From NCBI RefSeq assembly GCF_003019035.1, contig NZ_CP027447.1: a DNA stretch of 64,000 nucleotides; one strand, given 5' to 3'. Shown in pieces: positions 997-2,649 of this stretch. The number at the start of each line of letters is the position of its first letter. The first letter of the stretch is position 1. This stretch comes from Escherichia coli. Its GTDB lineage: Bacteria; Pseudomonadota; Gammaproteobacteria; Enterobacterales; Enterobacteriaceae. The notes under the pieces are model-generated. The model did no database searches, was not told the DNA's origin, and worked only from the letters and a program-made list of their open reading frames with translations. The position numbers were made by a program, and so were the translations under genes.

Positions 997-2649
997 ATGA
1001 GCAAAATATCAGATTTGAATTATTTTCAACACATTACATTAGCCGACAATTTTAAACAAAAAAGTGAAGTTTTAAATACCTGGCGTGTTGGAATGAATAA
1101 TTTTGCCCGTAATGCCGAGGGGCAGGATAATACAAGAAATATCCTTGATCCTAAGACATTTTTGGAGTTTTTGGTAAAAATATTTACCCTGGGTTATGTG
1201 GATTTTAGCAAACGCTCCAACGAAGCGGGAAGAAATATGATGGCTCATATTGAGTCCTCATCTTATATCAAAAATAATGATGGCAGTGAGTTAATGAAGT
1301 TTGTTATGAATAATCCTGAAGGGGAACGAGCGGATTTATCTAAGGTGGAAATAGAAATTACACTTTCCACTATCACTACTATGGGGACTCGTCAAGGACA
1401 TACGGCTATTATATTTCAACAACCTGATGGTTCGACTAATCGTTATGAAGGAAAGTCCTTTGAAAGAAAAGATGAGAGTTCATTACACCTGATTACTAAC
1501 AAGATTCTGGCGTGTTACCAACGCGAAGCTAACAAGGAAATAGCTCGTCTATTAAATATTCCGCAGGAGTTAAATAATTCTCATGACTTAAATAACTCGC
1601 AGGTGAGTTGTAAAGGTTCAGTTGATTCTACGATTACGGATTTATTAGAAAAACCATTGAATAATGCATTATTAGCAATAAGGAAAGAACATCTGCTATT
1701 AATGCCTTATGTATGTAATGAATCGATTTCATACTTGCTGGGTAAAAAAGGGATACTGAAAGAAATAGATGACCTTAACGTATTAAATAATTATCTTATT
1801 AATAATAAAAAAGCTACTGACAATGAAATTAATGACATCAAAGTTAACCTGTCTCATATTCTTATTGATTCCTTGGATGATGCAAAAGTTAACCTTGCAC
1901 CGGTCATCGTTTCGATTCTGGAGACTTTTTTAAAATCCCCATATATTAATGATGTAAGAATACTGGATTGGTGTTTTAATAAAAGCATGCAATATTTTGA
2001 TGATTCAGCAAAGATAAAGCATGCATGCTCTGTGATAAATCATATTGATTTTAGCCGCGATCAATCTAAAGATTTTAGCTGCGATCAATCTAAAATTAAA
2101 ATAGCTGAGACCTTATTTTTCAATCTCGATAAAGAACCCTATAAAAATAGCCGTAAATTACAGGAATTGATTTGGGATAAGTTGGTTGCATATGTCAATG
2201 ATTTTAGCTTAAGCAATCAAGAAAAATCACGCTTAATACTAAGGTTATTTGATGATGTTAAGTTACTATTTAATGAAGTGCCTGTCAGCATTTTAGTAAA
2301 TGATATTTTTTTGAAGGATTTTTTCATGAAGCAACCTGATTTTGCTAAGTGGTACTTCTATCAATTACTTAAGTGTTATGAGGGCGAACAGCTGTATCTT
2401 AATGAGTTAGGATATGTTTATGGTGATGAAGAAAAAACAAAAGAAATTGTAAATAAACTTCCGGGTTATGTCGTTAAGATTTTTGAAGAAAAGATGGGTA
2501 ATGAATTAAAAATTAGAACAAGAATGATGAAAATCCTCCGGAATGGCAAAATCAATATATATGGATATATTAATGAAGAACAGTTAGGAAAATTAAATCC
2601 TCCGGAAGATTTACGTATAGCAATAAAAAAATTGGGGTGGAATAATTGA
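997..2649 (+). CDS. yjgL: YjgL-like uncharacterised protein (550 aa), AT-rich, Asn/Lys-rich
   Basis: Long ORF with AAGGAG RBS at 985-990; position between tabA and argI matches K-12 gene order; contains an in-frame 24-bp tandem repeat. Confidence 0.7.
   Translation: MSKISDLNYFQHITLADNFKQKSEVLNTWRVGMNNFARNAEGQDNTRNILDPKTFLEFLVKIFTLGYVDFSKRSNEAGRNMMAHIESSSYIKNNDGSELMKFVMNNPEGERADLSKVEIEITLSTITTMGTRQGHTAIIFQQPDGSTNRYEGKSFERKDESSLHLITNKILACYQREANKEIARLLNIPQELNNSHDLNNSQVSCKGSVDSTITDLLEKPLNNALLAIRKEHLLLMPYVCNESISYLLGKKGILKEIDDLNVLNNYLINNKKATDNEINDIKVNLSHILIDSLDDAKVNLAPVIVSILETFLKSPYINDVRILDWCFNKSMQYFDDSAKIKHACSVINHIDFSRDQSKDFSCDQSKIKIAETLFFNLDKEPYKNSRKLQELIWDKLVAYVNDFSLSNQEKSRLILRLFDDVKLLFNEVPVSILVNDIFLKDFFMKQPDFAKWYFYQLLKCYEGEQLYLNELGYVYGDEEKTKEIVNKLPGYVVKIFEEKMGNELKIRTRMMKILRNGKINIYGYINEEQLGKLNPPEDLRIAIKKLGWNN

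Follow-up and report, generated by a model that had tools for sequence, protein, structure and literature searches.

The simple-sequence contingency loci of Haemophilus, Neisseria and Campylobacter are coding tandem repeats in which copy number changes by strand misalignment. Their units are 1–7 nt long and present in many copies, and high-frequency switching of expression results from shifts of the reading frame or altered spacing of the promoter. In E. coli, deletion and expansion between short tandem direct repeats can proceed independently of RecA, through replication slippage or sister-strand misalignment; this process was defined experimentally on constructed repeats. Another coding repeat is the E. 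coli O157 MLVA locus VNTR-34, which was unchanged in serial passage, with a rate of at most approximately 4.4 × 10−5 per generation, and is slow compared with 6-bp VNTRs (PMC3777172). PMC9241512 and PMC9769918 equate yjgL, the gene studied here, with icaR. For Shigella flexneri, the same sources describe icaR as activated by MxiE/IpgC and its product as a substrate of type III secretion; the experiments demonstrating this secretion concern the Shigella protein alone. In E. coli, icaR was silent unless MxiE and IpgC were supplied, and 'fossil genes' was the term suggested by the authors (Silue et al. 2022, PMC9241512). Differences in icaR length were described there as 'internal and carboxy-terminal additions' that tend to follow phylogroup. 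In that part of the account, they were not resolved into tandem-repeat tracts and a 24-bp duplication did not appear.

The DNA analysed was a stretch of 64,000 nucleotides, hereafter the window, which is E. coli chromosome; positions 997–2649 were 100% identical to E. coli 2016C-3878. Based on the window ORFs and RefSeq annotation, the gene order was bdcR, tabA (yjgK), yjgL, argI/argF and rraB. The position of yjgL between tabA (yjgK) and argI/argF was the same in the annotation of the identical region and in 27 other loci. K-12-type alleles matched the window gene with 84.5% nucleotide identity over 100% of the query, and the encoded protein shared 77% amino acid identity with the K-12-type allele L012. 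Synteny and full-length homology thus both identify the window gene as the orthologue of K-12 yjgL, and the name given to it originally was correct, as the K-12-type alleles at the tabA–argI/argF locus are annotated as 'protein YjgL'. The locus resembles the published icaR in its location between tabA and argF/argI and its low GC content (PMC9241512), and differs from the IS-truncated Shigella icaR in that the window allele is full length (Table 1). The GC content of yjgL was 32%, compared with approximately 50% in the flanks. The whole window had a GC content of 45%, against approximately 51% for a typical E. coli chromosome, which suggests that it holds further AT-rich islands besides yjgL, for example at approximately 4800–5400. 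Upstream of yjgL, no site with three or fewer mismatches to the MxiE box consensus GTATCGTTTTTTTANAG was found. By eye, AGAGCGTTTTTTGATAT at 922–938 had five mismatches to this consensus and kept G6, T12 and A16. These are the MxiE box positions mutated in PMC9241512. Two weak matches elsewhere in the window (31719 and 44431) were at chance level.

Table 1. Coordinates of yjgL and its repeat tracts in the window (nt, counted from the first position).
Feature	Position	Strand	Basis
yjgL (= icaR) CDS, 550-aa allele, intact	997..2649	+	ORF; 100% match to NZ_CP029747.1 WP_000036418.1
18-bp tandem array, hexapeptide LNNxQx, 3 units, main length-variable tract	1552..1605	+	Tandem Repeats Finder, period 18; alleles differ by multiples of 18 bp
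24-bp unit 1, 'R' type (AGC CGC), GATTTTAGCCGCGATCAATCTAAA, DFSRDQSK, aa 351–358	2047..2070	+	Sequence, Tandem Repeats Finder, ORF
24-bp unit 2, 'C' type (AGC TGC), GATTTTAGCTGCGATCAATCTAAA, DFSCDQSK, aa 359–366	2071..2094	+	Sequence, Tandem Repeats Finder, ORF
6-bp tandem duplication TAAAAT-TAAAAT, overlaps end of unit 2; SKIAE to SKIKIAE (adds Ile-Lys)	2091..2102	+	Alignments
13-bp direct repeat AAATCCTCCGGAA, left copy	2531..2543	+	Repeat search; alignment; BLAST of L029
8-bp unit site, ATATATGA type, approximately 1–2 degenerate units in the window	2557..2571	+	Alignment (L006, L007, L010, L018, L027)
13-bp direct repeat AAATCCTCCGGAA, right copy	2595..2607	+	Repeat search; alignment

The original prediction for this gene was an in-frame 24-bp tandem duplication with one mismatch, encoding DFSRDQSK–DFSCDQSK. 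Inspection of the sequence, Tandem Repeats Finder and translation of the ORF all bore this out. The two units were arranged head-to-tail and identical at 23 of 24 positions, with C/T (CGC versus TGC) as the sole difference; Tandem Repeats Finder reported a period of 24, 2.0 copies, 95% matches and a score of 89 for 2047–2094, and a second repeat search listed the pair as well. The duplication was in frame within the 550-aa ORF, residues 351–366 of which were HIDFSRDQSKDFSCDQSKIKIAE. The chance expectation of a tandem 24-mer with at most one mismatch was approximately 2 × 10−8 in the window, and approximately 4 × 10−7 for the gene when every period between 6 and 60 was allowed. Within the 64 kb, this was the only tandem duplication with a period of 18–60 and at most one mismatch. 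Sequence inspection revealed no convincing microhomology flanking the junction that would give the 24-bp period, and no published description of the 24-bp yjgL repeat was found. A regulatory or RNA role of the repeat DNA was rejected, as the site had no Rfam match and no terminator, and promoter-like sites were at shuffle expectation, with no excess. The GATC site in each unit was likewise discarded as meaningful, since the single ancestral unit also has GATC.

The copy-number survey covered 5,426 complete genomes of E. coli. Queries were the native 148-bp region and artificial versions of it with one or three copies, with E-value cut-offs so strict that they were passed only by a contiguous full-length single alignment; 28 alleles spread over the identity range were additionally retrieved and aligned (L numbers). 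The allele family bearing the duplication was present in approximately 2,140 of the 5,426 genomes. Exactly two units were found in 2,076 genomes, including the laboratory strains B and W (KO11FL), and one unit on the same allele background in 58 genomes. Three units were found in eight records, of which H107 and H108 look like one isolate, and four in a single genome, strain E62. Deviation from two copies therefore affected 67 of approximately 2,143 carriers (approximately 3%); 97% kept exactly two, which was the mode, and the maximum was four. In the alignment, the two-unit family comprised the window, L001–L007, L009 and L010. The other E. coli families sampled (L008 and L011–L020, among them the K-12 type L012, the O157:H7 type L019, the L011 type and the mosaic L008) had one divergent unit. 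At this site they were 30 bp shorter than the two-copy family, corresponding to the 24-bp unit plus the 6 bp of the adjacent TAAAAT duplication. The latter was present in every allele of the two-copy family, was retained in the 58 single-unit genomes, and occurred in no other family nor in Escherichia albertii. A few yjgL matches were on short records (NZ_AP023207.1, 93,845 bp; NZ_CP135245.1, 373,462 bp), and up to three were counted on plasmid-classed records; these may be chromosomal fragments or mislabelled replicons.

Assemblers can collapse or expand short tandem repeats, and some variant classes consisted of a single genome each (KTa008 and MS 21-1, three copies; E62, four; 201609, one). 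We nevertheless consider it extremely unlikely that the duplication or its variant copy numbers are sequencing or assembly errors. An artefact, a concern attached to the original prediction, was refuted for the window, since 2,076 independent complete genomes had both units in the identical contiguous arrangement. At least five independent records shared the three-copy C-C-C state and 58 genomes the one-copy state, and every platform produces reads much longer than a repeat of 48–96 bp. Head-to-tail units, whole-unit differences between strains and recurrent changes fit a coding VNTR. The comparison of alleles that had been proposed yielded one, two, three and four copies rather than a uniform two, and intact YjgL alleles ranged from 503 to 604 aa, in agreement with the proposal of a length-variable protein. 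The accompanying interpretation, of short in-frame repeats as prone to slippage and as possible marks of length-variable proteins, was supported with qualifications: whole-unit variation was real, but rare (approximately 3%), and most of the length variation came from the 18-bp array at 1552–1605.

The difference between CGC (R) and TGC (C) served as a marker of individual units. The expanded alleles were arranged R-R-C (L021), R-C-C (L022), C-C-C (L023) and C-C-C-C (L024), and the single unit was R in L025 and L028 and C in L026 and L027. All changes were of whole units and in register in the alignment. Apart from its extra unit, L021 did not differ from the two-copy allele L003 at any shared position (0 SNPs). 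L025 differed from the window allele by 7 SNPs, L028 from L004 by 8 and L027 from L007 by 22, and L022–L024 differed from L009 by 12–14 SNPs and from one another by 1–5. Judged from these SNP backgrounds and R/C arrangements, the variants represent at least six independent events, three or more of them expansions and three or more contractions, each of which arose in place. Their number at a single site hints, indirectly, at a mutation rate above the point-mutation background. Part of the copy-number variation is clonal inheritance.

An alternative is that existing alleles were exchanged horizontally by homologous recombination and that the site is no more mutable than its surroundings. Alleles of yjgL are indeed mosaic, L008 being an example, and L026 was 62 SNPs away from any two-copy allele sampled; approximately 30 one-copy genomes share a single haplotype (the L026 type) across diverse hosts. 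L026 may be an ancestral intermediate, in which the 6-bp duplication came first and the 24-bp duplication later, or a recombinant, rather than a contraction. As an account of the whole site, exchange is unlikely. It is at odds with the identity of L021 and L003 outside the extra unit, and with the R-R-C, R-C-C, C-C-C and C-C-C-C arrays and the single R and C units each being on a different two-copy background. Since no donor allele exists for these arrangements, they arose in place.

The direction of change was determined with E. albertii, the only divergent relative. Its orthologue (L030), taken from the contig encoding P0127, was syntenic, had 62% nucleotide identity and was split into three ORFs; it contained one unit, one TAAAAT and no hexapeptide array. 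As E. albertii and the other E. coli families all have a single unit, the duplication is derived within E. coli. An outgroup search by DNA pattern in one-genome-per-species contigs was discarded; its single match was a contig of 5,135 bp deposited as 'MAG: Lachnospiraceae bacterium' (SFGN01000138.1, L029). This contig was 96–97% identical to the E. coli tabA–yjgL–argI region and carried the two-copy allele with the 64-bp deletion described below, so that it evidently belongs to E. coli and was mis-binned into the MAG.

Taken together, the site is best and quite probably explained by a single old tandem duplication that then behaved as a weak mini-VNTR, with whole-unit changes, in a weakly constrained gene. 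The eight-codon duplication would be the product of a single event in E. coli, in the progenitor of one yjgL/icaR allele family, with K-12 and O157:H7 retaining the ancestral single-unit state. Two near-identical adjacent units would then turn the site into a weak mini-VNTR, in which misalignment of units, whether by replication slippage or by unequal sister-chromosome exchange, could add or remove exactly one unit and give one, three or four copies. With a unit length divisible by three, such a change would do no more than make a predicted linker between helices eight residues longer or shorter, and would not switch the gene on or off. The variants probably persist because yjgL is very weakly constrained and their products are in frame. 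Copy number is presumably selectively neutral, and nothing indicated a functional effect of its variation.

The whole-unit gains and losses, and a 64-bp deletion exactly between 13-bp direct repeats in the same gene, resemble RecA-independent slippage in E. coli; whereas that process was defined on constructed repeats, the yjgL events are known from their natural products alone. The likeness to contingency loci lies in a coding tandem repeat whose copy number would change by strand misalignment. The yjgL repeat differs from them in having a unit of eight codons, two copies, no change of frame and rare variants. Alleles lacking the 64-bp deletion stayed in frame through the repeat, with products of 542 aa (L025), 550 aa (window) and 563 aa (L021). 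It is not a phase-variable contingency locus, given a unit length divisible by three, few copies and a low frequency of variants; neither switching of frame or promoter spacing nor a long tract was found.

The 24-bp repeat is one of at least five sites of repeat-mediated indels that the alignments revealed in yjgL, together with the 18-bp array, the TAAAAT duplication, the 8-bp tract and the 64-bp deletion. The array ranged from approximately 1 to approximately 13 units across alleles: one in the L011 family and 8–13 in K-12, O157 and related alleles (approximately 13 in K-12 and approximately 10 in O157:H7). Published VNTR-34 primers mapped to 1498–1524 and 1583–1614 of the window, either side of the array, and on the O157 allele L019 they would give a 243-bp product, with mismatches solely at the primer ends. 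On the basis of these primer positions, the array is identified as VNTR-34, also known as O157-34, Vhec2 or TR6, which has an 18-bp unit. In the icaR and MLVA literature examined, the marker was not linked to yjgL/icaR; a long-used O157 typing locus is now tied to this gene. VNTR-34 and the 24-bp repeat share the gene, and both are in-frame coding repeats that vary by whole units. VNTR-34 lies approximately 440 bp upstream of the 24-bp repeat and has 1 to approximately 13 copies (three in the window), whereas the 24-bp repeat has one to four, is restricted to one allele family and is much less polymorphic. The two are not the same locus, as 2047–2094 is outside the primer interval 1498–1614 and the unit is 24 rather than 18 bp. 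In lineages with a short, uninformative VNTR-34, typing could draw in addition on the number of 24-bp copies, the 8-bp tract and the 64-bp deletion.

Within yjgL, the closer analogue of a contingency locus is the 8-bp tract, which consisted of two to approximately eight ATATATGA units in other alleles. As eight is not a multiple of three, changes in this tract shift the frame or bring a TGA into frame, truncating or re-framing the C-terminus, and the alleles concerned are annotated by PGAP as 'frameshifted' or 'internal stop'. The tract is the most switch-like in yjgL, yet looks like decay rather than a switch. The 64-bp deletion extends from the left AAATCCTCCGGAA copy up to the right one, was found in L009, L022–L024 and L029, and frameshifts yjgL. 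An evenly spaced sample of matches suggests that roughly 1,200 complete genomes carry it, over half of the two-copy family. We regard it as highly improbable that the 24-bp, 18-bp and 8-bp tracts together form a programmed variability system; if they did, icaR would be a variable effector and not a fossil.

Alleles of yjgL (997–2649) differed by up to 15% at the nucleotide level, compared with 1–4% for tabA (413–874) and argI (2721–3725), and dN/dS between them was 0.41–0.73, in no case above 1. Many alleles were annotated as frameshifted or with an internal stop, and IS insertions also occurred. The gene is under very weak constraint. Some alleles looked mosaic; in L008, for example, the hexapeptide array is K-12-like and the 3′ half resembles that of the window allele. 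A secreted protein on which purifying and diversifying selection act together could likewise have a dN/dS of approximately 0.5. By analogy with the repeat-containing surface and effector proteins of pathogens, the repeat tracts of a secreted, effector-like YjgL/IcaR could be maintained to tune or diversify the protein, as adaptive length or antigenic variation. The secretion of IcaR by the type III system in Shigella (PMC9241512), the unusual polymorphism and several repeat tracts of yjgL, its high dN/dS and the recurrence of copy-number changes are in line with such a role. We consider it improbable, as E. coli is without MxiE/IpgC and icaR was reported silent there (PMC9241512), dN/dS did not exceed 1, and 97% of carriers keep exactly two copies. 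Moreover, frameshifts, stops or IS insertions are present in a large proportion of alleles, and the three- and four-copy alleles L022–L024 were already frameshifted by the 64-bp deletion. The decay of yjgL/icaR is largely through repeat-mediated indels, which supports the suggestion of a fossil type III secretion gene (PMC9241512). Among these indels, the 24-bp duplication is a minor, ordinary slippage scar, one of several in a fast-evolving and often broken gene. It is a population-scale example of a two-copy tandem duplication that is stable in approximately 2,000 genomes, with whole-unit gains and losses in a few per cent. Its practical value is modest, and it opens no new biological question.

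An exhaustive search with phmmer across 1.84 billion cluster representatives detected no homologue outside Escherichia; the matches were one full-length cluster, fragments and E. albertii only. The Pfam SopA-like central domain (PF13981) aligned with residues 282–370, but its 18.1 bits (E = 0.0037) are below the gathering threshold of 27, and membership was rejected on this ground. NCBIfam and PHROGs gave no credible match for YjgL, a profile search of PDB sequences gave no relative, and Foldseek against the PDB gave no match at E ≤ 0.001, with only generic helical repeats. An AlphaFold2 model built on a shallow alignment of 17 sequences had a mean pLDDT of 55 and a pTM of 0.37 and was used for local secondary structure only. 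It contained a helix at 336–349, coil at 350–359 and a helix at 360–378, with pLDDT below 50 at 355–361. This low-confidence model tentatively places the repeat in a linker between two helices, a position that may be tolerant of length change. DFS as a recurring structural motif was rejected, as the residues at two of its sites were DFN, NLR or NFR in other alleles, and its recurrence may be coincidence. In the window, the DFS tripeptide followed by polar residues recurred at residues 69, 351, 359 and 402 of YjgL (nt 1201, 2047, 2071 and 2200), each time just before a predicted helix. After collapsing the duplication, three DFS copies were left, a number reached by 1 of 20,000 shuffles.
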